Translations under genes and position numbers: made by a program
Notes under the pieces: model-generated
Told to the model about the DNA's origin: nothing
Seen by the model: only the letters and a program-made list of their open reading frames with translations
Databases searched by the model: none
In this document: piece after piece, positions 3,945-40,239 of the stretch
How the letters are laid out: every line of letters begins with the position of its first letter
Numbering within the stretch: the stretch's first letter is position 1
Origin: a virus
DNA: 64,000 bases
Virus genome (UHGV): UHGV-1383976
Direction: 5' to 3' (one strand)

Positions 3945-4324
3945 ACTTCATCATTATGCCAACGAGATTTCGCGCGATATTTATCCTGAAATAGTTCGTG
4001 CGCATTAGTAAGCGAATAAATATCCCAAAATGGGATGATATACAAGGGAATACAATTGGCTAGTGCATAACTGATTTTTCGGCGATCATGCTCTTGTTGT
4101 TTCAGTAAGCCACTACGACCGCCAAAGACTTCATAATAATGTTGTTGACCATTTACTTCGATAAGGCCGTGCGGCGTTGAAAAATCATAACGGAACCGAC
4201 CGCCGCGCAAATCCGTGTAAGATACTTCTTTTTGATAATCAATATGAGATTTTTGAAGTAAATCGCTTATAAAATTTTCATAATGGCTAGCCATTATATT
4301 TCCTCTATTTGACGCCACAAGCAC
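3917..4324 (-). CDS. possible Vsr/DUF559-like (PD-(D/E)XK) nuclease
   Basis: RYDFS...LIEVNGQQH motif, similar to the motif in ORF 14408..14839. Confidence 0.35.
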   Translation of the reverse strand: MLVASNRGNIMASHYENFISDLLQKSHIDYQKEVSYTDLRGGRFRYDFSTPHGLIEVNGQQHYYEVFGGRSGLLKQQEHDRRKISYALANCIPLYIIPFWDIYSLTNAHELFQDKYRAKSRWHNDEVWREHQNSV

Positions 4325-5403
4325 TCAGATTTGTCTTTGTCATCACGGAAGCGCACAAATTTAGGATGTCGCAACATTTTATCATCCGTTAGCTGCATTG
4401 CGCTTACTTCAATAACACGGCCAGCATAAGATTCGGGATGAGACTTTATTTCTTCAGTAAGGCCACTAAGAAAACCAATAGGATGAATCTTATCATTATT
4501 ATACACCGCGATTTCAAGACTGCCGGCCATTCCATAAAAGAATGATTTTGTGACAGGTTCATACTGCGCGCCTTTTGAAAATTCTTTATAAAAATTGCCT
4601 TTCTTGAACTCGTTAGTTTTAGTATCAAGCCAATACTCCCACGTTTCAATCTCTTTGCCAATATAAGTGCGGGTTGGCTTTGTATAGCGTCCAGTAAAGA
4701 AACAATCAATTGTGTCTTCAAGTTCCTTCTTTATTTTGAGGGAAATCTTAGTTGAACGTTTGCCCGGCTGGTAGATACCATTCTCATTTAGAATAACACC
4801 ACCCTCACCGCCAGCCGCAAGAGTGTCAGCTATCATATTCCACAGTTCCTGTCCCCAATAAAACCTTGCGGCAGTTGCATAGAGATAATGATTATCTTTT
4901 ACTATATCATCAATATGCGCTAAATAAGACATACGAACTTTTGCTGGTTGATTCATAAGAGATATGCCATCCCAAGCCAGTATATCAAAAGCATAAAAAT
5001 GAAGCTTATCATTTTTCTGGCGTGCGATTGCCTTGTCGGTAAGAGCGCCCATTACTTTGGTGACTTCGCTAGATCCTTCGTGTGTTGGAAAATAAATTTC
5101 ACCAAGAATACAGGTTCCAATCGGCAAGGCATCAAAAAATGATTGAAGTTGTGGGACGTGGTCGAGTTTATCAGCAAAATCGCCACTTACACCACGAGAG
5201 CGACTAAGTAGCATCATATTGTTATCTTCATCTTTTACAAATTTAGAGAAGTAGCCATCCATCTTACGAGCACCCATCCATTCACCAGAAAAGACGCGCT
5301 TACGTGCCTCTTCTTTTGGATCACCTTTATAGGACTTTGGATGAGCGTAATAACGCATTGGTTCCATCTCTTTGAAATTAAATCCATCTATATAGCCAAG
5401 CAT
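4294..5403 (-). CDS. ATP-dependent DNA/RNA ligase (covalent nucleotidyltransferase superfamily)
   Basis: KMDG (KxDG motif I), EGGVILN (motif IV-like), KISLKIKK (motif V-like). Confidence 0.6.
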   Translation of the reverse strand: MLGYIDGFNFKEMEPMRYYAHPKSYKGDPKEEARKRVFSGEWMGARKMDGYFSKFVKDEDNNMMLLSRSRGVSGDFADKLDHVPQLQSFFDALPIGTCILGEIYFPTHEGSSEVTKVMGALTDKAIARQKNDKLHFYAFDILAWDGISLMNQPAKVRMSYLAHIDDIVKDNHYLYATAARFYWGQELWNMIADTLAAGGEGGVILNENGIYQPGKRSTKISLKIKKELEDTIDCFFTGRYTKPTRTYIGKEIETWEYWLDTKTNEFKKGNFYKEFSKGAQYEPVTKSFFYGMAGSLEIAVYNNDKIHPIGFLSGLTEEIKSHPESYAGRVIEVSAMQLTDDKMLRHPKFVRFRDDKDKSECLWRQIEEI

Positions 5404-5573: not shown

Positions 5574-6143
5574 TTACGTGTTTACTATACCAGAATTTTG
5601 GAAAGAAGTCAAATTTTTGATAAATCGCTTTGCTTCAACTTCTAAGTCCTCAAAAGTTTGATTGTTGTCTATTATATAGTCATATTCATAGTTAAGGACA
5701 TTTGCATCAGCATGATTTGATGCCTTTGAAGCCTCCGCTGAATCGCGCCGTATAAGTAAGGTCGTACCATTTGTGGCCTTCTTGAGCTTGTCAATTTCGG
5801 CAGGTTCGCGCACATCTACAAAAATAAAACCTTTTCGCGGATCGATTTGATAGGACAGCAATTCATCTTCAAACTCGCGCACGTATTTCATTATATCACG
5901 GAAAGGCGCATTGTTGTATGCACTCATTAGATCTTTTAAGTCTGACAGAAATTTACGATCACGTGGTTCTTTTACACCTTGCCAACCAACTTTCGCGGCA
6001 ACCTCTTTTACCAGATCTACGCTACTACGCGCCCTATAATATGGGCCGAGAATAAAGCTACACATTTGTTCAAACGTAGTTTTGCCACTACTGGGCGCAC
6101 CATTTACTATAACCACATTTACGTGATTTTCAGCTATTTCCAT
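5574..6143 (-). CDS. P-loop kinase (polynucleotide/dNMP kinase-like)
   Basis: Walker A GAPSSGKTT. Confidence 0.5.
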   Translation of the reverse strand: MEIAENHVNVVIVNGAPSSGKTTFEQMCSFILGPYYRARSSVDLVKEVAAKVGWQGVKEPRDRKFLSDLKDLMSAYNNAPFRDIMKYVREFEDELLSYQIDPRKGFIFVDVREPAEIDKLKKATNGTTLLIRRDSAEASKASNHADANVLNYEYDYIIDNNQTFEDLEVEAKRFIKNLTSFQNSGIVNT

Positions 6144-12553: not shown

Positions 12554-13138
12554 ATGTCAAAGAATTTTTACATTAGTGACACCCATTTTGGACACGCTAA
12601 CATTCTGAGATTTGATAGACGCCCATTCAATTCTGTTGAAGAAATGAACGCCGCGCTCATCAAGAATTGGAATGACGCAGTTGACCCGAATGACAATATT
12701 TACATACTGGGCGATTTTTGCTGGGGCAAGTCTGATGAATGGATTGATATTTTGTCTCAGCTCCAAGGCAACAAATATCTTATTGCAGGCAACCATGACT
12801 TGCGTAATCCTCCTTCTACTGTGCGGCGGTTCTTTCAGGATTGGCGCGACTACAAAGAAATTTCTAACAACGATCGTAAGGTTATAATGTGTCATTATCC
12901 GATTCCATTTTACAAGTCAGATTACAACTCAAACACTTATATGTTATTTGGTCATTTGCATACAACATTTGAGAATGAATATCTGGAAAATTTGCGATAT
13001 CAAATAGAAAATGATCCTTATGAGCGGCCAGCCAAAAATCTTTGTCAGTTTTATAACGTCGGCTGTATGATGCCGTGGATGGACTATACACCGCGCACAT
13101 TGGATGAAATTGTAGATGGATTTGCTAAGTTCCATTGA
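12554..13138 (+). CDS. calcineurin-like metallophosphoesterase
   Basis: DTHFGH, GDF, GNHD motifs. Confidence 0.65.
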   Translation: MSKNFYISDTHFGHANILRFDRRPFNSVEEMNAALIKNWNDAVDPNDNIYILGDFCWGKSDEWIDILSQLQGNKYLIAGNHDLRNPPSTVRRFFQDWRDYKEISNNDRKVIMCHYPIPFYKSDYNSNTYMLFGHLHTTFENEYLENLRYQIENDPYERPAKNLCQFYNVGCMMPWMDYTPRTLDEIVDGFAKFH

Positions 13139-13150
13139 AGGGGAATAGGC

Positions 13151-13702
13151 ATGGCAGTAAATAAAGGATATTTAACAGCAAAAACAGATAAAGAGTCTGA
13201 TGAAGTATATACACCAGCATATGCTGTTCGACCTTTGGTTAAGTATTTGCGATTTTTTGAAAAAATAAAGGGGCATCCAATAAAAATTTGGTGTCCTTTT
13301 GATACGCAAAGCTCGCAATATGTTCAAGTGTTTAGAGAAGCTGGTTTTGAGGTTATTCACTCTCATATTGAGGAAGGGAAAAATTTCTTTTTCTACGAAC
13401 CCGATGAACGGTATGATATTATTATTTCGAATCCACCTTTTTCACAAAAGGACAATGTTTTGAAACGTTTGTTTGAGTTAAACAAGCCATATGCGATGTT
13501 ATTGCCAATTCCAGCCTTGCAAGGGCAAAAGCGTTTCCCTTATATAAAAGATGGACTACAATATCTTGGTTTTGATAAGAGAATTAATTATTATACTAAT
13601 GCAGATTTTTCTCAAGTGCAAAAAGGGGTTTCTTTTGGTTCTTGTTATTTGTGTAAGCAATTTCTTCCAAGAGATTTAATTCTTGAAGAGTTGGAAGCGT
13701 AA
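13151..13702 (+). CDS. phage Dam-like N6-adenine DNA methyltransferase
   Basis: DEVYTP and IIISNPPFSQ motifs. Confidence 0.6.
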   Translation: MAVNKGYLTAKTDKESDEVYTPAYAVRPLVKYLRFFEKIKGHPIKIWCPFDTQSSQYVQVFREAGFEVIHSHIEEGKNFFFYEPDERYDIIISNPPFSQKDNVLKRLFELNKPYAMLLPIPALQGQKRFPYIKDGLQYLGFDKRINYYTNADFSQVQKGVSFGSCYLCKQFLPRDLILEELEA

Positions 13703-13707
13703 AAAAT

Positions 13708-13795
13708 GCGGGATGAACTCAGACGGCTCTGAAACCGGTCTTGAAAACCGTGGGCAGGCAAAACCTGTGGGGATCGACACCTCCGTCCCGCGCCA
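13708..13795 (+). tRNA. tRNA-Ser(TGA)-like, type II
   Basis: acceptor gcgggat/gtcccgc; anticodon cggt-cttgaaa-accg; non-canonical T-arm (tgggg-atcgaca-cctcc). Confidence 0.5.
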
Positions 13796-13885: not shown

Positions 13886-13973
13886 GCCCCATCTTCAGTT
13901 CTATAGCTGGTGAAGATGGATAGGCGATGAAGTATAGCAATAATATGGCATGAGAACTATGATAGTGTTTCAT

Positions 13974-14061
13974 GAGAGCGTAACTCAGTCGGTAGAGTTT
14001 TATAGCGTGAAGGGATATGCTATTGAATGCCCTTAGTCGCCAGTTCGAATCTGGCCGCTCT
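13974..14061 (+). ncRNA. tRNA-like element with aberrant anticodon region
   Basis: good acceptor (gagagcg/cgctctc), D-arm (tagagtt), and T-arm (gccag-ttcgaat-ctggc); ~17 extra nt where the anticodon arm should be. Confidence 0.4.
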
Positions 14062-14091
14062 CATTAAAAATATATATGAAGAGGAATAGTT

Positions 14092-14385: not shown

Positions 14386-14852
14386 TTACTTGACCTTATC
14401 ATTCTTTATGAAAAAGATAATGAATAGTAAGCAAAAAGGAAACATTACAGAACTTGAAACAATGTTAGCATTTCTAAAACTTGGTTATAATGTTTTAACT
14501 CCATATGGAGATTGTGAGAGATATGACTTTGTTGTAGATGTTAATGGAAAATTTATTCGAGTTCAAGCTAAAACATCAAATACTGAAGATGATGGTGCAT
14601 CATTTAAATTTTCTTGTAGAAGTTGCAATAGAAAAGATGGTAAAATTGTGCATCATATATATTTAAGCGAAGAAATTGATTACTTCGTAACTACTTTTAA
14701 TGGAAAATGTTATTTAATTCCAGTTGAAGAGTGCGGAGCTGATAAAAGACTTCGTATTCTTCCAACAAAAAATGGACAGGTAAGAGGTATTACTTGGGCA
14801 AAAGATTATGAATTGGAGGAAGTAGTAAAGAATTGGTAAGCTGATGTGTAAG
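14386..14852 (+). mobile_element. insertion (candidate intron or homing-endonuclease cassette) in the tRNA anticodon loop
   Basis: flanked by a U (5') and a G (3') if the anticodon is GTC; ORF fills almost the entire insert. Confidence 0.45.
14408..14839 (+). CDS. Vsr/DUF559-like PD-(D/E)XK nuclease (putative homing endonuclease)
   Basis: ERYDFVVDVNGKFIRVQAK motif; located inside the tRNA; ATG preceded by an AT-rich leader. Confidence 0.5.
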   Translation: MKKIMNSKQKGNITELETMLAFLKLGYNVLTPYGDCERYDFVVDVNGKFIRVQAKTSNTEDDGASFKFSCRSCNRKDGKIVHHIYLSEEIDYFVTTFNGKCYLIPVEECGADKRLRILPTKNGQVRGITWAKDYELEEVVKNW

Positions 14853-15322: not shown

Positions 15323-16099
15323 TTGCGTGGTAAAAAGGTTTTATGTAATTGTAATGATGGTTTGACAAGTGAGTTCTTAAATTATTTTGTCAATAATTTT
15401 GATTGTCTTGAACTTGATGAACTTGTTTGTTTGACTTATAATAAAGATGGAAAGGCATATAAGTATACCAAGCGTCCTAAAGTTGACCTTATGGTTGAAC
15501 CACTCATCGGTTCTGGTGCATTTGATTCACAGGAAGGCCGAGATGCTCTTGCCGCTTGTGATATTGTTATAACAAATCCTCCCTTTAGTCAATTTCGAGA
15601 TTTTGTCAATTTGATTTTGTCTTACAAAAAAGATTTTTTGATAATTGGCAGTAAAAATGCTATTACCTACAAAGAATTTTTTCCACTTTTAATGAGTGGT
15701 AAAGTTCATATTGGCAATTTCAATGTTTCTACTTTTAAACAGCCAGATGGTACTGATAAAAAATTTGGTAATATCGGTTGGTTTACGACTCTTTCTGTTG
15801 TAAAAGCGGCACAACCAATTCCTTTAACAGCAACCTATGATCCGCAAAATTATCCTACTTATGATAACTTCCGTGCAATTGAAGTAAGTCGCACAGCTAA
15901 TATTCCTAAGGACTATGATGGCGTAATGGGGGTTCCTATTTCATTTCTGGACAAATTTTGTCCTACTCAATTTAAAATTGTTGGATGGAGTCGTCATAAT
16001 GACGAAGGAATGGATGGCGGATACTGGACGGGTGGTTGTGCTGATGCTACTATAAATGGTAAGCAAGTTTATCGCAGAATTTTGATTCAGAAAATTTGA
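15323..16099 (+). CDS. Dam-like N6-adenine MTase paralog (start uncertain)
   Basis: IVITNPPFSQ motif; the homologous DEFYTQ motif lies upstream (15269–15286) in frame, right after the TAG. Confidence 0.5.
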   Translation: MRGKKVLCNCNDGLTSEFLNYFVNNFDCLELDELVCLTYNKDGKAYKYTKRPKVDLMVEPLIGSGAFDSQEGRDALAACDIVITNPPFSQFRDFVNLILSYKKDFLIIGSKNAITYKEFFPLLMSGKVHIGNFNVSTFKQPDGTDKKFGNIGWFTTLSVVKAAQPIPLTATYDPQNYPTYDNFRAIEVSRTANIPKDYDGVMGVPISFLDKFCPTQFKIVGWSRHNDEGMDGGYWTGGCADATINGKQVYRRILIQKI

Positions 16100-16124
16100 T
16101 TTTTATTAAAATTTTCGATATAAT
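16096..16124 (+). promoter_or_regulatory. family-A promoter
   Basis: TTGATT-17-TATAATATATATAGAAAG. Confidence 0.6.
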
Positions 16125-16919: not shown

Positions 16920-16995
16920 AAGGGAGTAGCCCAATAGGTAAGGCAGCAGTCTCCAAAACTGAAGATTAAAGGTTCGAGTCCTTTCTCTCTTGCCA
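16920..16995 (+). tRNA. tRNA-Trp(CCA)
   Basis: anticodon loop ctCCAaa; T-arm aaagg-ttcgagt-ccttt; CCA. Confidence 0.6.
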
Positions 16996-17079: not shown

Positions 17080-17805
17080 GAAAAAGTCAAAAGGAGGACA
17101 ATGCTAGTGCCACCTACACGTGGTGTCCTCTGTTTTCGCTAAGAGCGCTGGCATATATCCAATTAAATAATACTAACTCAGTGAAGACGGAATTCGATGT
17201 TCCGGCTGAGAAATTCCAGCTAGCACAGCAGAAACGAAACAAGGATACTTGTGGATACTGGACTGAGAGGCCATCGAGAGATGAGCCGAAGTAGAGCGGT
17301 CGCTCAAGTGGGAAGAAGAGCAGGAATTGTGCTGAGTGAATCGCAAGCAAACGCAGCCGTGGAGTGGCGAGCGCAATAGACAGCTTGGTGAATAGCCAAG
17401 CCGAACCCAAGTTAGGTCTTAGTTGGTGCCTGTGGCAATCCTTGGGAAAACCAATAAGCTCGTTCCGTTGAGACGACAGGGAATGTGAAATCTGTCTTTG
17501 ACACTCTACAGCATCCGAGTAGCGGAACACAACGGGGACTTATAGAAAAGATGGTCAGTAATAATAGAAATTGCTATTTTATCTTTCTGAACATCCCGTG
17601 AAAGGTAGAGGTAATCAACCCTCTGGCGGATTAGGCGACATTAGACACTTGGGCTATCCAAGAGTAACAAGTCAATGTTGTTGCTGGGGTAAGAAGTGTA
17701 TGGGCGACGGCCTGTATGCTCAGACTTATCTCCCGCGTGGCAGAATATGCTTGAAGGTTTATCGAGGTAGGGCGAAGGCCCAGTAATATTTAGTTGGATT
17801 TATAT
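17080..17805 (+). ncRNA. candidate large structured ncRNA (~700 nt, GC-rich, ORF-free)
   Basis: no credible ORF on either strand; GC content clearly above flanks; promoter upstream; tRNAs on both sides. Confidence 0.45.
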
Positions 17806-17806
17806 G

Positions 17807-17878
17807 GCAGGACGAGAAGGTTCTCCATTTGGCCTCATAAGCCAGATTTCGTGGGTTCGATTCCCACTCCTGCATCCA
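17807..17878 (+). tRNA. tRNA-Met(CAT)-like (short D-arm)
   Basis: anticodon ttggc-ctcataa-gccag; T-arm gtggg-ttcgatt-cccac; CCA; 4-nt D-loop. Confidence 0.45.
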
Positions 17879-19901: not shown

Positions 19902-20222
19902 ATGGATAAATATACTGGCTATTATGAGTGGCATCCATCAGAACAAGGACTTGAGGATTTTTATTCTGGCCTTTTTACACCTGCAGGGATGGGCTTGGTT
20001 GAAAACCAGTATTTGATTATCTATGACTCCGAAGATAAGGTTATAGATAAATATTTTTGTAAGAACAATGAATTTGAAAAGGTTCATTATATGGCGCTTC
20101 AAAGCGATTACTGTGGGGTTATCAAACCACGCAATGTATATCAGGAATTGGCTATTCATTCCCTTATGGATAGACGTGTTCCCGTAAAAGTTTTGGGTGG
20201 CGTCTTTGGCTCGGGTAAATAA
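19902..20222 (+). CDS. phoH: PhoH-like ATPase, exon 1 (ends inside the Walker A GGVFGSGK)
   Basis: ORF stops immediately after GSGK; continuation found at 21150. Confidence 0.55.
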   Translation: MDKYTGYYEWHPSEQGLEDFYSGLFTPAGMGLVENQYLIIYDSEDKVIDKYFCKNNEFEKVHYMALQSDYCGVIKPRNVYQELAIHSLMDRRVPVKVLGGVFGSGK

Positions 20223-21149
20223 CTTGCCCCTTCTTAGGGCGACCTAAGAATGAAAATCGCGTGAATTGCTGGAAGCCTAAGCCGCAAGGTATGGTAATCA
20301 GCAGCCAAGCCGTTTTAGCAACGGAAGGTTCAACGACTATCCCGGCAGGGAGTAGGGAGCAATCCCGAAGCGCGCGACAACTTTTGTTTTGTTTTTATTT
20401 TAATAAAGGAGGTGAGGTTATAAATAAGTGGACAGATGAACAAAAAGCAGAAATTATTGATGATTATACCAAAAAAGGTATGACTTTGGCAGAGATTGGA
20501 AAAAAATTTCATTCTAAAGGAGATACAATTAGTAAATATCTAAAGTCTTGGGATATTCCCATCAATCGTAGAAAGAAAAATCGGCTTATGAATGAAAAGT
20601 TTTTTTCTATAATTGACTCAGCTGAAAAGAGTTATTTTCTGGGCTTGTTATTCGCTGATGGTTCAGTTGTTTTAAATAGCGAGCGGGCGCCATATGTTTC
20701 TTTAGAATTAGTAGAAAAGGACAAAGAAATATTAGAAATTTTCCGTTCATTATTAAATTGTCAAAATGACTTATACTACAATAAGCGAGATAATCGGAAG
20801 AATGGAACATATACTTTTGGAGTAAGAAGTCAATTACTAGCTGATGATTTAGCTAAATTTAATATCATTCCAAATAAAACTTATGAAACAACCCAAGTAA
20901 TTTTCCCAGAAAATTTTCTTATTGATTTTCTAAGAGGGTATATTGATGGCGATGGCTCTATTTATCAAAATGTTTATAAGGCCGTTTGGAATGGACAAGA
21001 TGCTAAACGAATTATAAACATTCTCTATTTAAAGAACGATGGCATTGCGCTCTCTCGAAAACGAGAACGAGCTAAGTTAGCTCAACAAAACAAAAGTTGA
21101 TGATATAGTCTAATCCCTTTTTAAAAATATCGGGAAACCGAGGGTATAA
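20223..21149 (+). mobile_element. putative group I intron with LAGLIDADG homing endonuclease
   Basis: interrupts PhoH between Walker A and downstream motifs; ~180-nt structured non-coding 5' part. Confidence 0.55.
20420..21100 (+). CDS. LAGLIDADG homing endonuclease (two motifs) with N-terminal HTH
   Basis: LGLLFADGS and LRGYIDGDGS; no canonical start after RBS aaaggaggtga; frame open from 20261 through intron RNA. Confidence 0.65.
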   Translation: MNKWTDEQKAEIIDDYTKKGMTLAEIGKKFHSKGDTISKYLKSWDIPINRRKKNRLMNEKFFSIIDSAEKSYFLGLLFADGSVVLNSERAPYVSLELVEKDKEILEIFRSLLNCQNDLYYNKRDNRKNGTYTFGVRSQLLADDLAKFNIIPNKTYETTQVIFPENFLIDFLRGYIDGDGSIYQNVYKAVWNGQDAKRIINILYLKNDGIALSRKRERAKLAQQNKS

Positions 21150-32095: not shown

Positions 32096-32142
32096 ATAAA
32101 AATATAAGATAATTGAGATTTTACAAAAGGAGATCAATTCAA

Positions 32143-33138
32143 ATGATAGGCGTAGACCTAAATCAATATCGTAATCTACCTGATTACGCACAACTTAAAA
32201 AGGATGGTTATGAGTTCGCCATTATAAAACTGGCAACTGGTGTAACCTTTACTAACCCGCTTTTTCAAACCCAGTTTAGTGGTTGTAAGTCAGCCGGCCT
32301 AAACATCGGCGTTTATACTCGTGCCGACAAGCAACCTACAAGCGGCGCACAGGAAGCTGCCTATGCACTCAACATACTAGGTAATCGTCATGTAGATTTC
32401 CCCATCTACTATGACGTAGAGGGAGAAACACTAAATCTTTCAAAAGACAAGCTGACTCAGCTGGCTCTTGATTTTGGTAAAGCAATAAAACGCGCAGGAT
32501 ATCGCTGGGGTATTTATACATCCCGCGCACATTTCAAATGCTTTGACCTTGACAGGCTGAAAGAAGCTGGCGCATCTATATGGTGCGCCGCCTATGATAA
32601 TCAAGCTGGTATGGAGTGCGACATTTGGCAAAAGTCAGATAAAGGCTCTATTACAGGATATTCTGGACCAGTTGATGTAGATGTTTTATATAATGAAAGC
32701 ATAATACAGAAGGAGGAAAATAAAATGAGTTTGAATTTGATAAAATGTTTTCAAACACAAGGCGCGTGGTATAATCAAACCACAAATGGAACTCCTGTTG
32801 GGGTATGTTGGCACGATACCGGCGCTGGTAACCCAACATTGAAGCGCTATGTCCAGCCATCTACTAATGACCCCGATTATAATTATTTTATAAACCTTAT
32901 CGGCAAGAACAATAATGGCAATCACTGGAATCGTATGGCCGCAAATCAGGCAGGATTGAACGCTTGGATTGGTCAACTCGCGGATGGCAGTGTTGCTACT
33001 GTTCAGGCTGGCCCTTGGGAAAAGCGTCCTTGGGGTGTTGGCTCTGGCAGATACGGTTCACTTAATGGTGATAAGAATGTGCCTAATGATAAGTTTTGGA
33101 TCCAGTTTGAGATTACATCGTTGCTAGTCTCCGCGTAA
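32143..33138 (+). CDS. endolysin exon 1 (GH25 muramidase + N-terminal half of amidase_2)
   Basis: IGVDLNQY...GYEFAIIKAT (GH25); VCWHDTGAGN...GSLNGD (amidase_2 front half). Confidence 0.65.
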   Translation: MIGVDLNQYRNLPDYAQLKKDGYEFAIIKLATGVTFTNPLFQTQFSGCKSAGLNIGVYTRADKQPTSGAQEAAYALNILGNRHVDFPIYYDVEGETLNLSKDKLTQLALDFGKAIKRAGYRWGIYTSRAHFKCFDLDRLKEAGASIWCAAYDNQAGMECDIWQKSDKGSITGYSGPVDVDVLYNESIIQKEENKMSLNLIKCFQTQGAWYNQTTNGTPVGVCWHDTGAGNPTLKRYVQPSTNDPDYNYFINLIGKNNNGNHWNRMAANQAGLNAWIGQLADGSVATVQAGPWEKRPWGVGSGRYGSLNGDKNVPNDKFWIQFEITSLLVSA

Positions 33139-34182
33139 AGCGATTTGCGTGTAAAAATACATATCGAATTGCTGGAAAACCGTAAAGCTATTCTTGCTAC
33201 AACGTAAGGATGAAACAAGCCTAAGCGTGAAAGCCGCGAAAGCAGAAAGAAAAGAATAGATGGCGTATGGTTAAATCCTAAGCGCTATATAATTGGCAAT
33301 CAGCAGCTAAGCCTTGAATAAAGGAAAGTTCAACGACTAAGTGCCTTGCAAGCGATTGGCAAGGACAGTGGTATGCGGCTCATTGAGCCGAAGATATAGT
33401 CTGTGCTTCGAGAGAAATCCGAAGGAGCGAAAGCTCAGTGCGGGGTAGCGCCCAAAAAGTTTATTTTGAATGGAGAAAGAAATGACTTATAAAGAATTTA
33501 TTGACAATATTTTAGAAGAACGAGGACGTTTTTCGTGTGGAGAGGAATATCACGAGAGGCATCACATTCTTCCTAAGTGCAAAGGCGGCACAGATGATAA
33601 AGAAAATTTGATTGACTTATTTGCTAAAGAGCATTTTATTGCGCATAAATTGTTAGCTGAAGAAAATCCTGAAGATATAAGTTTGGTTAGGGCTTATCAA
33701 TGCATGACAATAGCTAGAAATCCAAAAACTGCACGATATATTGCTTCTTCTGAAGAGTATGAGGAAGCAAGAAAAATGTTTTCAGAAGCTCTCAAAGAAT
33801 TATATAAAGACAAAACAAAGCATCCAAGCTATGGCAAACATATTAGTGAAGAAAGAAAACAACGAATTAGTGAAGCCAATAAAGGAAATAAGTATTGCGT
33901 TGGCCGGAAAGTTTCAGAAGAAACACGCAAGAAAATAAGTGAAGCCAATTCGAACCCTTCCGCCGAAACGCGTGAAAAAATGAGTCAATCTCAAAAGAAG
34001 CTCGCACGGTGGGATGGAGCAAAGAATCCTAAAGCTCGAAAAGTTGTTCGTCTTTCTGATGGGAAAGTTTATGATTGTATTAAATATGCCGCCGAAGAAA
34101 ATAATATTCCTCTCTCCACTTTCAAAAGTAGATTACACAAAGGCAAAGGCGATTTTGTGTATTTCGAAGACTATCAAAATAA
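33139..34182 (+). mobile_element. putative group I intron carrying an HNH endonuclease
   Basis: 330-nt GC-rich ORF-free 5' segment + HNH ORF; splits the amidase_2 domain. Confidence 0.55.
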
Positions 34183-34192
34183 ACAGCACTAA
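33470..34192 (+). CDS. HNH homing endonuclease with NUMOD-like repeats
   Basis: HHILPKCKGGTDDKENL..HF.AH HNH motif; repeated ISEE/EANKG modules. Confidence 0.7.
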   Translation: MEKEMTYKEFIDNILEERGRFSCGEEYHERHHILPKCKGGTDDKENLIDLFAKEHFIAHKLLAEENPEDISLVRAYQCMTIARNPKTARYIASSEEYEEARKMFSEALKELYKDKTKHPSYGKHISEERKQRISEANKGNKYCVGRKVSEETRKKISEANSNPSAETREKMSQSQKKLARWDGAKNPKARKVVRLSDGKVYDCIKYAAEENNIPLSTFKSRLHKGKGDFVYFEDYQNKQH

Positions 34193-35265
34193 ACACAAAC
34201 AGATGTGACGATTACGCACACAACCAACCTTGTCGCAGATCTTATTTTGAACAAGCCTATCAGCAAGCTGTCGAATTTACTGCCTACATTTGCCAACTCT
34301 ATAACATAGACCCGTTTGGCACCGCCAATTACCGTGGCCACGATATTCCGACAATTTGTTGCCACTATGATAGCTATAAGTTTGGTTTTGGTTCCAATCA
34401 CAATGATGTCTATCAATGGTTCAATCGTTTTGGTAAAACTATGGATGATGTCAGACGCGATGTTGGCGCACTAATGGGTAAGGTTGTCGTTCCTGATACT
34501 CCCGACCCTGTCATTCCTTCTCAGCCATCTCGGCCTTCTAACCCTTATCCGACACTTAGGGTTAGCGCACATGGCGTTGCCGTCAAAACTGCGCAACAAC
34601 GTCTTATCGCACACGGTTATGATGTTGGTTCCGCTGGTGCTGATGGCTGGTTTGGTGAAGGTACTCTCAAGGCCGTCAAGAGGTTTCAGTCTGATAAGGG
34701 TCTTACTGTTGATGGCATAATTGGCTCTGCTACTTGGACAGCGCTAAACAAAGAGCCAGAGAAGAAAGAAGAACCAGTGCAGCCTGTGCAACCAAGTGAG
34801 CCAGCTAAGCCTATCCAACCATCCACTAATCGTCCGACAATCGGCGTTGGTGATAGTGGAGCTTACGTAAAAGAAGCCCAAACAATGCTGAAAAAGCTGG
34901 GCTATAACATTGGCTCCTATGGTGCGGATGGTGTGTTCGGCAACTCTACCAAAGGTGCAGTTCTCAATTTCCAAAAGAAGAGCAACCTCGATGCTGATGG
35001 CATTGTTGGCCCGAACACTTGGGCCAAACTCGATAAACAAATTGCCGCGCTATCTGATAATTCGACTAGCTCTAGTGGAGTTCCATTCCTTGTTCGAGTC
35101 AATTCAAATGCCCTTAACATTCGTAAAGGCCCCGGTACTAATTATGCTATTGCTCGTACTATAACCGACCGTGGCACCTACACAATAGTTGAAGTATCTG
35201 GTGATTGGGGCAAACTCAAGAGCGGCGCAGGCTGGATAAATCTGAATTATACTACCAGAGTTTGA
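34183..35265 (+). CDS. endolysin exon 2 (amidase_2 C-terminal half + 2×PG_binding_1 + SH3)
   Basis: frame open from 34183: RGHDIPTICCHYDS (amidase_2 Zn site); two PG-binding repeats; SH3b. Confidence 0.6.
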   Translation, partial: TALNTNRCDDYAHNQPCRRSYFEQAYQQAVEFTAYICQLYNIDPFGTANYRGHDIPTICCHYDSYKFGFGSNHNDVYQWFNRFGKTMDDVRRDVGALMGKVVVPDTPDPVIPSQPSRPSNPYPTLRVSAHGVAVKTAQQRLIAHGYDVGSAGADGWFGEGTLKAVKRFQSDKGLTVDGIIGSATWTALNKEPEKKEEPVQPVQPSEPAKPIQPSTNRPTIGVGDSGAYVKEAQTMLKKLGYNIGSYGADGVFGNSTKGAVLNFQKKSNLDADGIVGPNTWAKLDKQIAALSDNSTSSSGVPFLVRVNSNALNIRKGPGTNYAIARTITDRGTYTIVEVSGDWGKLKSGAGWINLNYTTRV

Positions 35266-35267
35266 TA

Positions 35268-35302
35268 CACGACACTCCTGTTTATCAGGAGTGTCTTTTT
35301 TT
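35268..35302 (+). terminator. rho-independent terminator
   Basis: acacgacactcctg/caggagtgtc followed by a T-run. Confidence 0.6.
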
Positions 35303-35311
35303 GAATGAAAT

Positions 35312-35340
35312 TTGATTTTTTTAAAATAGTATGCTATAAT
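35312..35340 (+). promoter_or_regulatory. family-A promoter
   Basis: TTGATT-17-TATAATATATATAGAAAATG. Confidence 0.6.
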
Positions 35341-35372
35341 ATATATAGAAAATGAGAAAAGGAGCTAATGAA

Positions 35373-36358: not shown

Positions 36359-37564
36359 ATGCTTGATGTAAAAATTTTTGCACGTTGTATTGAACAGACC
36401 GCTGAAGAGCAAATATACGATTTAGCCGCCTCGTCGATAGGAGAAAACGCGCACATACGAATAATGCCGGATGCGCACGCTGGTAAGGGATGCGTAATTG
36501 GAACTACTATGTTAGTAAAAGATAAGATTTGCCCTAATATTGTTGGCGTTGACATTGGATGCGGAGTTACTGCTGCAAAAATTAACTGTCCTTTGATCAT
36601 GGATGAGTTAATGTTTTTGCGCGAACGCCTTGTAGATGGCGCAATACCATCAGGAAGCACTATATACAACGAATTTAGAGATTGGGATCCTTTTTTTGAA
36701 CTTGGCGCAACTATCCTTCGTAAGTTGAGATGTAAGGAAATTTACAATAAGTGTGAAATTGATTATTTTGCTAAGTCTATGGGAACACTCGGAGGCGGAA
36801 ATCATTTCATTGAAATAGACGAAGACTCCGATGGCAATCATTGGATTGTTGTACATACTGGCTCGCGCAATTTGGGCCTTCAGGTAGCAAAGTATTATCA
36901 AAACAGAGCAGAAATGCGAATTCTTGAAGAATATACTCACAAGCGTAATGCAGCTATCACTACGCTGAAAGAGGAAGGCCGCCAGCGTGAAATTTCAGAG
37001 GTATTAGCCTCTATCAAAAAAGATGCGCCATCTAAGTTTGATTATTTAGTAGATAATGACTATAATAACTATCTTCGCGATATGGCACTTTGTCAGAAGT
37101 GGGCAAAATATAACCGAGCAAATATTATTTATAACATTGCTGCAATTTTAAATCGCAAAGTTACAATGACAGTTGAGTCAGTTCATAACTATATAGATTT
37201 TTCAACTCAAACACCTATCCTCCGCAAGGGCGCAATTTCGGCTAAGTATGACGAGATTTGTCTTATTCCACTCAATATGCGGGATGGTACGCTACTGTGC
37301 CGTGGAAAAGGTAACTCTGATTGGAACTTATCAGCTCCACATGGAGCCGGACGACTTATGTCTCGCGCTCAGGCAAGAAAAGAATTATCTTTAGACGAGT
37401 TTGAAAAATCAATGGACGGCATTGTGTCAAACGTTTGTGCAGAAACCATTGATGAAGCACCTTTCGCTTACAAGAATTGGGAAGAGATTGAAGAAGCTGT
37501 GCGGCCTACCGTTGAAATTATTGACCACTGGAAGCCAATTTTCAATTTTAAGGCGATGTCTTAA
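36359..37564 (+). CDS. rtcB: RtcB RNA ligase (3'-phosphate/5'-OH)
   Basis: MPDAHAGKG, GVDIGCG, GGGNHF.E, HTGSR.LG, HNY, RKGA, SAPHGAGR motifs. Confidence 0.8.
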   Translation: MLDVKIFARCIEQTAEEQIYDLAASSIGENAHIRIMPDAHAGKGCVIGTTMLVKDKICPNIVGVDIGCGVTAAKINCPLIMDELMFLRERLVDGAIPSGSTIYNEFRDWDPFFELGATILRKLRCKEIYNKCEIDYFAKSMGTLGGGNHFIEIDEDSDGNHWIVVHTGSRNLGLQVAKYYQNRAEMRILEEYTHKRNAAITTLKEEGRQREISEVLASIKKDAPSKFDYLVDNDYNNYLRDMALCQKWAKYNRANIIYNIAAILNRKVTMTVESVHNYIDFSTQTPILRKGAISAKYDEICLIPLNMRDGTLLCRGKGNSDWNLSAPHGAGRLMSRAQARKELSLDEFEKSMDGIVSNVCAETIDEAPFAYKNWEEIEEAVRPTVEIIDHWKPIFNFKAMS

Positions 37565-37569
37565 AAAAT

Positions 37570-37598
37570 TTGATTTTTTATAAAAATTAAGCTATAAT
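37570..37598 (+). promoter_or_regulatory. family-A promoter
   Basis: TTGATT-17-TATAAT. Confidence 0.6.
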
Positions 37599-37629
37599 AT
37601 ATATAGAAAATGAAAGTGAGGGAAAGAAA

Positions 37630-37974
37630 ATGAAAAAAATTCTGATACTTACAGCCGAAGGCGCAACTCAGTATTTTATTCGTCAGAGTGCGACTGTGCG
37701 GCGGTGTGATAAAAGTGAGGTTCTTTCTCTTATGCTCAAGCCGCACTTGTTTAAAGTTGAAAGACGCCGCGTCAATGGAGGAGACTTGTGTGCGAATGTC
37801 TCACGTGATGTAGATAAATCATCTAAAAGACATTTCGATAAGACGTGGTATGCGGCATATGTATTGACTTGTTTCAATTGTTTGTTCCTTGGTTTCAACA
37901 ATTCGCTTCCCGACGAAGATTGTGAGCATTTTGATACGTTATGGGAGTATGCTAAAACAGGTAAAGTGTCATAA
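37630..37974 (+). CDS. hypothetical protein
   Basis: ORF. Confidence 0.45.
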   Translation: MKKILILTAEGATQYFIRQSATVRRCDKSEVLSLMLKPHLFKVERRRVNGGDLCANVSRDVDKSSKRHFDKTWYAAYVLTCFNCLFLGFNNSLPDEDCEHFDTLWEYAKTGKVS

Positions 37975-37988
37975 AGGAGGTATATCTA

Positions 37989-38231
37989 ATGAGTAAAAGT
38001 CCAGCACTTGTGCATCAAATATTACGCGACTGGCGCGAGGAAAGTAAAAGTCCTCCTTTTTCATATAGTTTTAATTGGGCAAAAGGTCAGATCGATATTT
38101 ACACAGCGCGGCCCGGCCTTTTGATTGGCAAGGGTGGTTCATTGGCTGAGAAGTATATTGGAAAAATGAAAGCCGCATACCCTTCTTTTAATATTCGACT
38201 TCATGAACTTGAATTGCATTATGTTAAATAA
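37989..38231 (+). CDS. hypothetical protein
   Basis: RBS aaggagg. Confidence 0.4.
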   Translation: MSKSPALVHQILRDWREESKSPPFSYSFNWAKGQIDIYTARPGLLIGKGGSLAEKYIGKMKAAYPSFNIRLHELELHYVK

Positions 38232-38246
38232 GAAAGGAGTATATCA

Positions 38247-39083
38247 ATGATAAATCCGCAGGAATATGTAAATAAGGCATATCAGCTTGGCGAAAAGGTT
38301 TATGGTAATCGTCTTATATTCGCCGCACATTACGGCTCTTTCAATTATGGCCTTGCCGATGAGGAAAGCGATTGTGATGTCGCTCTTATTGTAATGCCAT
38401 CAATGGAGGAAATTGTAAGGTGTGAAAGCTCCAACACTCCATTGAAGCACGTTCCTGAAGGCGACATTGATGTAATTGATGTTCGCACTTTTGTTAGACG
38501 ATTGGCTAACGCTGAGCTTAATTCTCTTCAGTATCTTTATGCGCCTTATCACAAGTGGAATGAATATTGGAATGATACTTTCGCGTCTCTTCACGGCAAG
38601 TTTCTTTGGGATATTGCTATGATAAATCCGTATGAACTTTTCTATAATATGCGGGGTGTAATAGCCCGCGCAAGTAAGCGAATGGATAATGTTAGTGAGA
38701 AAAATCCCTTTAGTCCATCTTGCTCTAAAGCTATTTATAATGCAATGCGAATGATCGACCTTGCGAACGCATTCGCTGATGATATTGAGGAAAATGGTCT
38801 TGGCACTTATAACGACATCAATATATTTTCTTGGGAGTATGGTGTTCATAGTAGGAAGGACTTGATGGCAATGAAACGCGGTTTATATTCATACACAACC
38901 GCCCGCGATTGTATTGATTCGTGTATGAAAGAAATTGATAAGTTCCATGATATATTTATCAATGAGGACAATGAAACCATAGCTTTGGATAATCGTGCGG
39001 TACAGCGTCTTGAGCGAATGATTGAAGGCGCTCTCATTAAACTTTACTTCAATGAAGCGGCTACACCAAAATTTTGGTCATAA
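38247..39083 (+). CDS. Pol-beta-superfamily nucleotidyltransferase
   Basis: GSFNYGLADEESDCDV (GS...DxD). Confidence 0.6.
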   Translation: MINPQEYVNKAYQLGEKVYGNRLIFAAHYGSFNYGLADEESDCDVALIVMPSMEEIVRCESSNTPLKHVPEGDIDVIDVRTFVRRLANAELNSLQYLYAPYHKWNEYWNDTFASLHGKFLWDIAMINPYELFYNMRGVIARASKRMDNVSEKNPFSPSCSKAIYNAMRMIDLANAFADDIEENGLGTYNDINIFSWEYGVHSRKDLMAMKRGLYSYTTARDCIDSCMKEIDKFHDIFINEDNETIALDNRAVQRLERMIEGALIKLYFNEAATPKFWS

Positions 39084-39087
39084 AAAT

Positions 39088-39116
39088 TTGATTTTTTCTC
39101 GAATTTTCGATATAAT
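39088..39116 (+). promoter_or_regulatory. family-A promoter
   Basis: TTGATT-17-TATAAT. Confidence 0.6.
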
Positions 39117-39143
39117 ATATATAGAAAGTGAGAGAGAAATATG

Positions 39144-39221
39144 GGCCGGATAACTCAGATGGTAGAGAACCAGTGCGGTTAGGCGCTGGAGGAGGCGGTG
39201 GTTCGAATCCACCTCGGCCCA
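39144..39221 (+). tRNA. atypical tRNA-like (7-bp anticodon stem, 6-nt loop GGTTAG)
   Basis: perfect acceptor ggccgga/tcggccc and T-arm ggtgg-ttcgaat-ccacc; non-canonical anticodon arm. Confidence 0.4.
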
Positions 39222-39224
39222 ATT

Positions 39225-40073
39225 AGATATGAAGGCGACATACAGTTATTATAGTCGCCGGACGTACTGCTCCGTCCATTACGAACAGAGCAGCCCCGCA
39301 AAACGAGGGTGAGAGTTGAGTTTGTTGGTTTTACTTGAAACCGCCGTCGGGGTAAGTGGCGTTACATCTTACCAAAAAAATCCGTCTGACTGCAGTAAGG
39401 GCGGTTGGTTTGTAGGTTTGCCAATAGGTATAAGTCTAGATACCAATAAAATACTTACCAAAGAGGAGTAATATGGCTGAAGTCCTCCAGCGTGGTTGAT
39501 ATGTTGAAATGCCTAGGCCACGCACATATGTCAGTTTAGTTTAACGAGGGAAAACAACGCCCGTCAAGGCGTAATTTCGGGTTCGAGTCCCGAAACTGTC
39601 CTTGGTTTGACAGGCCAAGAAATTTGTCAGGTGCGGCCCTTTGTCGCCGGTCGAGACTCCGTCCGGAAATGAGCTACGTCTAAGTAAGAAGCGTGAACTT
39701 AGCGCTGATGTGCGTGATGCATCGGTTGCGTGTCCAAAACACGACAGGTTTGGTTGAGTTTTCTACACAAAATTCAATTGGGTCAGGCCGCCCACAGGAT
39801 GGCCGCGGGTTCCACTCCCCGAACGAAAAACAATCGGGAAATCTCTTGTTTTTCTCAATTTTGTTAGTAGTTAGTCGCATTGATGAAATTGCTTTTTGGA
39901 GTAAAGTTGTGAGTAGCTAAAGAAATGACAATTCTTTTTCTACTCAAAAAGCCAAGTATCCGCCTCTGCTTGGACATCCGCGCGAGGTTGCGTGTTGATG
40001 AAAAGCGTGGAAGGCAGTTATATAATGGGGACTGCCGCATAGTTGGTTTAGGAGAGTTGCCAGCTACGGAAAT
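39225..40073 (+). ncRNA. candidate large structured ncRNA (~850 nt, GC-rich, ORF-free, with tRNA-like modules)
   Basis: no ORFs; embedded T-arm-like cgggttcgagtcccg; same transcription unit as the flanking tRNAs. Confidence 0.45.
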
Positions 40074-40150
40074 GGCGCATTGGACGAACTGGTAGAGTCA
40101 CCACCCTTTCAAGGTGGAACTTAGGGGTTCAAGCCCCCTATGCGTCACCA
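40074..40150 (+). tRNA. tRNA-Glu(TTC)
   Basis: anticodon ccacc-ctttcaa-ggtgg; T-arm agggg-ttcaagc-cccct; CCA. Confidence 0.65.
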
Positions 40151-40176: not shown

Positions 40177-40210
40177 TCTTAGAGTCCCGCGTAGATTAGC
40201 TACGCGGGAT
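40177..40210 (+). terminator. rho-independent terminator
   Basis: cccgcgtagattagctacgcggg followed by a T-run. Confidence 0.6.
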
Positions 40211-40239
40211 TTGATTTTTTAAGAATTTTTATTATAATA
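40211..40239 (+). promoter_or_regulatory. family-A promoter
   Basis: TTGATT-17-TATAAT. Confidence 0.6.

Follow-up and report, generated by a model that had tools for sequence, protein, structure and literature searches.

The stretch of DNA analysed here, 64,000 nucleotides of the UHGV virus genome UHGV-1383976 (hereafter the window), looks like part of a tailed-phage genome. Its GC content is ~40%, plus-strand genes span 7.7-52 kb, and the gene content includes structural, lysis and replication genes. The locus of interest comprises a gene for an RtcB RNA ligase, two small genes termed ORF114 and KH80, a gene for a Pol-beta-type nucleotidyltransferase that we assign to the RlaP family, and a unit of non-coding RNAs (Table 1). 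A sequence-only reading of the window had placed RtcB two genes upstream of the nucleotidyltransferase, with a tRNA/non-coding RNA unit right after these genes. This layout is correct: exactly two genes, at 37630-37974 and 37989-38231, intervene between the enzymes, and the non-coding unit follows at 39142-40150.

RtcB is the final gene of its own unit. The match to Pfam PF01139 (E 3.4e-58) extends over residues 30-398 of 401 and profile positions 12-425 of 426, and the PHROGs match is phrog_1075 (E 7e-122). The metal-binding and nucleophile motifs are all found, as the sequence-only reading had stated: D65 and C68 in GVDIGCGV, H149 in GGGNH, H166 in HTGSRNLG, H276 in SVHNY and H328 in PHGAGR. 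D65, C68, H149, H166 and H328 align with the motifs of Pyrococcus horikoshii RtcB (4dwr), H276 is assigned by motif alone, and H328 is the nucleophile (the guanylylated histidine). To judge from its sequence, the product is a complete RtcB with all catalytic motifs, and ligase activity is predicted.

What kind of nucleotidyltransferase is encoded downstream? The protein begins with a Pol-beta nucleotidyltransferase core (G30-S31, D42-x-D44 and D78), which fits the 'minimal' enzyme with a GS…DxD motif described earlier, and continues into a predicted C-terminal helical domain. Pfam assigns it to RlaP (PF10127, 'RNA repair pathway DNA polymerase beta family') with 26.6 bits, where the gathering score is 23; PHROGs places it in phrog_388, 'nucleotidyltransferase' (E 8e-16). 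Homologues from the close clade carry precomputed PF10127 labels. A word-indexed homologue search with the window enzyme returned nothing below 64% identity and nothing from beyond the clade. A profile search run exhaustively over 1.84 billion representatives yielded 965 remote homologues. Most are 250-280 amino acids long, and the best-scoring one outside the clade reaches 82 bits. Alignment A5 contains 74 sequences (the window enzyme, two clade members and 71 remote homologues), 53 of which match PF10127 on their own. Across this alignment G30, N33, Y34, S41, D42 and D44 are invariant, while S31, D78 and R80 are conserved in at least 90% of the sequences. The RlaP signature, hG[GS]xxYG ... 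SDxD ... third acidic residue, is present in the window enzyme.

Comparison with individual phage enzymes gives the same picture. In hhalign the A5 profile matches T4 NrdC.11 with a probability of 95% (E 3e-8) and the RlaP motif aligned; NrdC.11 alone matches PF10127 at E 4.6e-12, and is the T4 member of RlaP (PMC12776372). By tblastn, SPO1-like Bacillus phages, SP-15 and Listeria phage LIS04 encode proteins with 24-29% identity to the window enzyme across 70-94% of its length, and several of these (Herelleviridae, SP-15/LIS04) bear the annotation 'RNA repair pathway DNA polymerase beta'. A confident AlphaFold2 model built from the deep 74-sequence alignment (predicted local distance difference test score 89.4, predicted template modelling score 0.88) shows an alpha/beta nucleotidyltransferase core followed by an all-helical C-terminal half. 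Its neighbours in BFVD include baculovirus HE65 as well as Bacillus phage nucleotidyltransferases, the latter at template modelling (TM) scores of 0.68-0.72. The window nucleotidyltransferase is thus grouped with phage RlaP-type enzymes both by sequence profiles and by models of viral proteins. We conclude that the product is a divergent RlaP and not a CCA-adding, antibiotic-type or cGAS-type enzyme. Since the window RlaP is itself a divergent member of an already described family, the earlier thought that the enzyme might be something new finds no support.

Table 1. Features of the RtcB-RlaP locus and of other parts of the window discussed in the text
Feature	Position	Strand	Basis or remark
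RtcB RNA ligase, 401 aa	36359..37564	+	Pfam, PHROGs, motif alignment; final gene of own unit
Divergent RlaP-family nucleotidyltransferase, 278 aa	38247..39083	+	PF10127, phrog_388, remote homologues, hhalign, AlphaFold2 model
ORF114, 114 aa, basic (pI 8.9), orphan	37630..37974	+	codon differences, conservation
KH80, 80 aa, basic (pI 9.6), type-II KH-like core	37989..38231	+	sub-threshold Pfam match, PDB match
tRNA-like element 1	39142..39222	+	acceptor, D and T arms conserved; non-canonical 'anticodon' loop of 8 nt, CCA absent
Structured RNA 'A', ~307 nt	39223..39529	+	alifold, compensatory changes
tRNA-like element 2	39530..39601	+	6-nt anticodon loop (CGUCAA), U2-U71 mismatch, no CCA
Structured RNA 'B', ~472 nt	39602..40073	+	covariation versus controls
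tRNA-Glu(UUC)	40074..40150	+	canonical, CCA encoded; closes the RNA unit
cREC domain protein, 105 aa	40585..40902	+	PF20274, phrog_1479; next unit
Strong terminator	35271-35295		precedes the RtcB-unit promoter
Promoter-like site (TTGATT-17-TATAAT plus extended motif TATAATATATATAGAAAATGA)	35312..35355	+	heads ORF90-ORF123-ORF118-RtcB
Promoter-like site, ORF114-KH80-RlaP unit	37570..37613	+	
Promoter-like site, non-coding RNA unit	39088..39131	+	
Strong intrinsic terminator	40182..40212	+	13-bp stem and T run
Promoter motif copies (TTGATT-17-TATAATATATATAGAAAGTGA)	7699, 10130, 10760, 16119, 35335, 37593, 39111, 40233, 43546, 47072, 47731	+	
ATP-dependent DNA ligase	4294-5403	-	PF01068 E 7.7e-16 and OB domain
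P-loop, dNMP-kinase-like protein	5574-6143	-	phrog_139 E 4e-10; dNMP kinase models only
Calcineurin-type phosphoesterase	12554-13138		inside tRNA island; Metallophos E 1.3e-8

RlaP, short for 'RNA ligase-associating Pol-beta', was given its name by Burroughs and Aravind (2016) because its genes are linked in operons to RNA ligases, RtcB among them (PMC12776372). The Pseudomonas enzyme prefers Mn2+, adds 1-2 NMP onto RNA 3'-OH ends, favours the 5' half of nicked tRNA, and partly restores aminoacylation of a tRNA missing one nucleotide (PMC12776372). In vitro, RlaP can also extend the 3' ends of full-length tRNAs by 1-2 nt, with little NTP specificity, and it has been proposed as an antidote against cut-and-trim ribotoxins such as RloC and PaOrf2 (PMC12776372). 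The crystal structure of PfRlaP has an N-terminal nucleotidyltransferase domain and a C-terminal helical domain with a cleft between them (PMC12776372).

The two small genes upstream are read with RlaP as one co-transcribed unit behind one promoter-like site. Compared with the relative L003, ORF114 shows 37 synonymous and 7 non-synonymous codon differences, and its amino acid identity in relatives is 94-97% where that of RlaP is 72-79%. KH80 is 91-96% identical in relatives, and its synonymous changes far outnumber the non-synonymous ones. This excess of synonymous changes indicates that both are real genes; for ORF114, the codon pattern points to strong purifying selection. ORF114 forms a single 90%-identity cluster in 5.8e9 proteins, has no family match in Pfam, PHROG, PDB or by tblastn against phages, and gave no match beyond the clade in a word-indexed homologue search. 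KH80 has the core IDIYTARPGLLIGKGGS with a GxxG motif at residues 47-50 (G47-K-G-G50). It matches Pfam KH_2 (PF07650) at E 0.0025 and 18 bits, below the cutoff of 22, and in PDB the KH domain of ribosomal protein uS3 at E 0.003 with the GKGG motif aligned. A tblastn search with KH80 against phages gave no significant match. Counterparts of ORF114 and KH80 are absent from the RlaP loci of Goe8 and LIS04, where the small proteins upstream of RlaP were considered as KH80 homologues and are not homologous. We infer that KH80 is an RNA-binding partner of RlaP.

How are these genes organised for expression? An extended promoter-like motif (TTGATT-17-TATAAT extended to TATAATATATATAGAAAGTGA) occurs in 11 copies, all on the plus strand, where 0 are expected by chance. 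It heads the units of RtcB (35335), RlaP (37593), the non-coding RNAs (39111) and cREC (40233), as well as both tRNA islands (10760 and 16119). The 11 copies define a putative phage promoter class that repair genes and tRNA islands have in common. Between 35.2 and 41 kb, the terminator-like sites at 35271-35295 and 40182-40212 are the two strongest. They flank the RtcB, RlaP and RNA units, which are thus enclosed in a single bounded domain; within it, 683 nt separate the end of RtcB from the start of RlaP.

The RNA unit consists of two tRNA-like elements that alternate with two large RNAs, A and B, and is closed by a canonical tRNA. Both tRNA-like elements keep their acceptor, D and T arms. 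Across relatives, however, their anticodon arms are replaced by unrelated hairpins, some of them capped by a GCGAA-type loop; for this reason the elements are probably non-decoding, and they may be processing handles or mimics. A third aberrant tRNA-like element, at 13973-14064, has an extended anticodon arm, normal acceptor, D and T arms, and no CCA; its anticodon arm, too, gives way to unrelated hairpins in relatives, and it is probably non-decoding as well. The spacers that form RNAs A and B are more conserved across relatives than the tRNA-like elements themselves. For RNA A, alifold on 9 relatives gives 63 pairs, 12 of them with compensatory double-sided changes. In the highly conserved RNA B, 18 helices comprise 133 pairs, and 99.2% of cells are paired. 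Double-sided changes occur at 14 of these pairs, where shuffles give 5.6+-1.5 (0/500) and slid controls 0-3. The covariation evidence comes from ~10 closely related sequences, so that it supports a structured RNA and does not address function. In relative L012 (L012:6848-7632) a 247-aa zinc-ribbon gene is inserted in the tRNA-Glu gene of this unit, and of the tRNA itself no more than the 3' half (positions 37-77) is left downstream of the insert.

Do RNAs A and B belong to a known class? Neither matches a family of Rfam 15 at E<=10, including the models of ROOL (RF03087) and GOLLD, while the same library gives 272 bits to a ROOL RNA elsewhere in the window (17153-17800). A search of the window showed no paralogue of either RNA, and exact-pattern scans of IMG/VR gave three contigs, all of the same clade. 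A joint fold of A, the tRNA-like element and B predicts long-range helices; these are nearly invariant across sequences and so leave undecided whether A and B are one RNA or two. ROOL and GOLLD are located in phage tRNA islands (Kretsch et al. 2025, PMC12286853), and RNAs A and B (307 and 472 nt) are likewise large, phage-encoded and flanked by tRNA-type elements. GOLLD may carry tRNAs in its linker (PMC12286853); here a tRNA-like element is embedded between A and B. In contrast to ROOL and GOLLD, A and B lack a covariance-model match at E<=10 and are seen in this phage clade only. Supported by covariation, without an Rfam family and flanked by tRNA-like elements that are probably non-decoding, RNAs A and B may be one or two RNAs of a new large phage class.

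Which parts of the locus are fixed and which are exchangeable? There is no close sequenced phage at the DNA level, the sole DNA matches being patches of RtcB at 67-74%. Close relatives, whose RlaP is 71-92% identical, are known from metagenomic contigs only, the longest mostly of 123-133 kb. ORF114, KH80 and RlaP, together with a non-coding stretch of ~1.0-1.2 kb, are kept in every relative examined. RtcB is kept by some close relatives, and in L003, L012 and L013 the gene (~1.2 kb) is precisely absent between ORF118 and the next promoter. The cREC gene, 1.5 kb downstream of RlaP in the window, was called only in L012 among the relatives examined. Phages with and without RtcB or cREC are otherwise syntenic. 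Presence and absence of RtcB and cREC among relatives that are 72-92% identical marks them as exchangeable accessory genes, as is typical of counter-defence functions. Sequence comparison thus presents the trio and the neighbouring RNA unit as the putative fixed core of the phage lineage, and RtcB and cREC as swappable add-ons. The phage is probably ~130 kb in size, tailed, and a carrier of accessory RNA repair with a Gram-positive gut bacterium as host; the GH25, PG_binding_1 and SH3 domains of its endolysin suggest a Gram-positive host.

The assignment of cREC, a cyclic-phosphate-processing receiver domain, is based on a match to PF20274 with E 8.9e-21 and 74.8 bits (cutoff 27) over profile positions 1-87 of 88. 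The acidic residues D6-D7 and D47/D49 in its sequence are candidates for the conserved receiver-type catalytic aspartates. The cREC domain has been proposed to be a cyclic-phosphate phosphoesterase linked to RNA ligases, and RtcB, RlaP and cREC have been named together as components of phage RNA repair (PMC7824862). The presence of cREC beside RtcB and RlaP is, therefore, a combination already described in phages.

Among known systems, the closest parallels are the bacterial RtcB-RlaP(-RtcA) operons, for example rtcB-rlaP-rtcA of Pseudomonas fluorescens and P. aeruginosa, in which RtcB is likewise found near a PF10127 nucleotidyltransferase (Carruthers et al. 2025, PMC12776372). The enzymes have in common the hGS...SDxD...D core and presumably the job of refilling ends that are then resealed; a C-terminal helical domain is predicted for the phage enzyme as well. 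The phage locus differs in lacking both the RtcA cyclase and the RtcR regulator, in having RtcB and RlaP in separate promoter units with ORF114 and KH80 between them, in the very divergent subclade to which its RlaP belongs, and in an RtcB that is dispensable in close relatives. The repertoires of jumbo and SPO1-like phages (RtcB/Rnl1/Rnl2 with RlaP, cREC and tRNAs; Iyer et al. 2021, PMC7824862) contain the same RtcB, RlaP and cREC families with a set of tRNAs, but here the phage is of ~130 kb and the components lie within ~4.5 kb and are not dispersed. T4 Pnkp and Rnl1, directed against PrrC, follow the same logic of a phage mending tRNA cut by a host anticodon nuclease. Their chemistry differs, in that RtcB joins 3'-phosphate or cyclic-phosphate ends to 5'-OH directly, and neither Pnkp nor Rnl is found here. 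The locus is a further case, from an uncultured lineage of gut phages, of the catalogued phage RtcB/RlaP/cREC repertoire, and it confirms this catalogue without extending it. The parts most worth attention are the unclassified RNA unit and the conserved partners of RlaP.

Do the tRNAs of the window require end maintenance by such enzymes? ARAGORN counts 15 tRNAs, including three odd elements, where ~17 had been estimated from sequence alone. The 12 canonical tRNAs (at 10.8-19.2 kb, plus tRNA-Glu at 40074) all have a genomic CCA, so that CCA addition is not particularly called for. The only elements without it are the aberrant tRNA-like elements at 13973-14064, 39142-39222 and 39530-39601; the earlier remark that several tRNAs lack an encoded CCA is not confirmed. 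RtcA, Ro and a CCA-adding enzyme were looked for among the ~100 window ORFs scanned, and none was found. A ligase and a P-loop kinase at 4.3-6.1 kb had also been counted towards RNA repair. Both genes exist; the RNA-repair role does not hold. The ligase matches DNA_ligase_A_M at E 7.7e-16 compared with E 0.0013 for RNA_ligase, the latter below cutoff, and it further matches phrog_114 (E 5e-28), DNA ligase 3 in PDB, and models of NHEJ and ATP-dependent DNA ligases. The pair was considered as a Pnkp and Rnl healing-and-sealing system for RNA and is instead a DNA ligase with a dNMP-kinase-like protein. Located beside RNase H, a UvrD helicase and a GIY-YIG endonuclease, the two genes are best explained as part of a replication module.

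What does the RtcB-RlaP module do? We consider it likely to be an accessory system for RNA end repair that guards translation RNAs, mainly tRNAs, against ribonucleases of the host or of competitors. The protein families, catalytic residues and gene layout are observed, whereas the substrates, the sequence of reactions and what KH80 and ORF114 contribute are inferred. Metal-independent anticodon nucleases leave 2',3'-cyclic-phosphate or 3'-phosphate ends and 5'-OH ends. As expected of its family, RtcB would reseal breaks with ends of this type. RlaP would refill trimmed 3' ends, replacing residues lost to cut-and-trim nucleases, for example those of the RloC type, and KH80, made together with RlaP, would probably guide it to RNA. 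Cyclic-phosphate ends would be handled by cREC and possibly also by the calcineurin-type phosphoesterase in the tRNA island, which is a candidate for a 2',3'-cyclic- or 3'-phosphate end-healing enzyme. The 12 phage tRNAs would offer a parallel remedy by replacing depleted host tRNAs. The toolkit for tRNA repair and against nucleases that was originally envisaged is retained in RtcB and RlaP, with cREC added, and loses the tRNAs without CCA, the ligase/kinase pair and any sign of CCA addition. Near-identical phages that naturally have or lack RtcB and cREC provide ready comparisons for a role in counter-defence.

Several observations weigh against this proposal. The product of RlaP is a 3'-OH end, which RtcB cannot ligate as it requires a 3'-phosphate, a mismatch stressed in the literature as an unsolved problem (PMC12776372) and equally unexplained here. 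As candidate cofactors, ORF114 and KH80 could bear on how the 3'-OH product of RlaP is made compatible with RtcB. RlaP is kept in L003, L012 and L013, where RtcB is absent at the locus, which indicates that the pair need not act jointly and that RlaP is not strictly dependent on a phage RtcB; Herelleviridae carry the two genes ~100 kb apart. No Rnl-type RNA ligase or polynucleotide kinase is found among the ~100 ORFs of the window scanned. As for the family assignment, the PF10127 match is limited to residues 16-104 (profile positions 13-103 of 249) and exceeds the cutoff by 3.6 bits, and searches of PDB by sequence and by structure with the window RlaP returned no solved RlaP structure.

Could the trio instead serve the RNAs of the phage itself? 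ORF114, KH80 and RlaP might act on the adjacent phage RNAs, in 3'-end tailing, maturation or the assembly of ribonucleoproteins, and not on host tRNA, with RtcB acquired independently. The trio and the RNA unit of ~1.1 kb are invariant in all relatives examined while RtcB is absent from three, and the adjacent tRNA-like elements have no CCA and non-decoding loops. However, synteny inside one closely related clade is not independent evidence, and phage islands of tRNAs and non-coding RNAs are known hot spots for accessory genes. No terminator stands between RlaP and the RNA unit; on the other hand, the RNA unit has its own promoter. Among distant phages, L020 has an RlaP (~23% identical) between a ROOL RNA and 10 tRNAs, and in L024 RlaP lies downstream of a DUF2828/DUF7788 protein, which we take to be Ro/TROVE-like, but four other distant contexts (Goe8, LIS04, L019 and L022) are without RNA genes nearby. 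With RNA genes adjoining RlaP in one (L020) of the six distant contexts examined, a general linkage between RlaP and non-coding RNAs is suggestive at best, and we regard an action on the phage's own RNAs as unlikely. Similarly doubtful is a more elaborate version, in which the trio and the RNA unit are one system: A and B would then represent a novel class of large 'ornate' phage RNA, punctuated by tRNA elements and laid out much as GOLLD and ROOL are, that is serviced or used by the KH protein and the nucleotidyltransferase, or else the tRNA-like elements with their 6- and 8-nt loops would be decoys or substrates for anticodon nucleases. If true, phage RNA of this type would gain its first protein partner, and its function a biochemical handle.

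Two further explanations concern the nucleotidyltransferase itself. It might not be an RNA-end enzyme at all, and be used in anti-defence as an MntA-like antitoxin, an ANT-like adenylyltransferase, or a signal synthase of the HalB/CD-NTase type. The sequence-only reading had named an antibiotic-type or cGAS-like enzyme as the outcome that would speak against a tRNA-related function. The best solved-structure neighbours of the AlphaFold2 model are indeed ANT(4')/kanamycin nucleotidyltransferase and Hailong HalB, and MntA is the best sequence match in both PDB and NCBIfam. These matches are weak, with TM 0.38-0.45 at ~10% identity for ANT(4') and HalB, and they reflect the common Pol-beta core and helical domain. 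For the antibiotic nucleotidyltransferases taken together (ANT(4'), AAD(9) and AadA), TM is 0.26-0.45 at 9-15% identity, and no ANT family of Pfam or NCBIfam is matched. An MntA identity is at odds with a score of 27.4 bits for NF047752 (cutoff 60) and with the length of the window protein, which is twice that of MntA. No HEPN match was found among the neighbours by Pfam or PHROGs, no other toxin partner is adjacent, and a search for defence systems with PADLOC yields just one partial match of 17.5 bits. As profile searches and viral structure models consistently point to RlaP-type phage enzymes, a function outside RNA-end chemistry is highly improbable. Hardly credible is the idea, also raised by the sequence-only reading, that the enzyme adds or repairs CCA on phage tRNAs. 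Its gene adjoins tRNA-like elements without CCA, and RlaP extends full-length tRNA 3' ends by 1-2 nt in vitro, but it does so with little NTP specificity (PMC12776372), and 12 of 12 canonical tRNAs encode their CCA. Moreover, Pfam gives RlaP, Polbeta and NTP_transf_2 only and not the CCA-adding enzyme/poly(A) polymerase family (PF01743), and the two-domain model of 278 residues does not have the head-neck-body-tail architecture of class II CCA-adding enzymes.

The tRNA islands of the window contain some additional elements. A full-length ROOL RNA (17153-17800; 272 bits, E 4e-61) lies between tRNA-Trp (16920-16995) and tRNA-Met (17801-17878), in an island that starts downstream of the promoter-motif copy at 16119. 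An EcoRI-like adenine methyltransferase is apparently split into ORFs 13151-13702 and 15323-16099 by an insert of ~1.6 kb, which holds a tRNA-like element, a PD-(D/E)XK_5 endonuclease (14390-14839) and a tRNA-Lys. Just upstream of the tRNA-like element at 13973 there is a weak tRNA-Sec-like match (13707-13792; 41 bits against a gathering score of 47). The island of L020 (L020:1678-6176; ENA ERZ28594044 scaffold_2225), with ROOL (343 bits), RlaP and 10 tRNAs, also carries a PD-(D/E)XK_5 protein and a calcineurin-type phosphoesterase, as does the tRNA island of the window; phosphoesterases similar to the one at 12554-13138 are located near RlaP in both L020 and L024.

Group I introns are found at two positions. 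A group I intron at 33075-33424 (71 bits), followed by an HNH-type ORF (33470-34192), interrupts the endolysin gene, whose exons lie at ~32113-33138 and 34441-35265; in L007, L009 and L012 the endolysin is uninterrupted and 668-677 aa long. The second intron, at 20207-20482 (67 bits), is overlapped by a 279-aa ORF (20261-21100), which is probably the one ORF between 7.7 and 32 kb with a LAGLIDADG_3 match.

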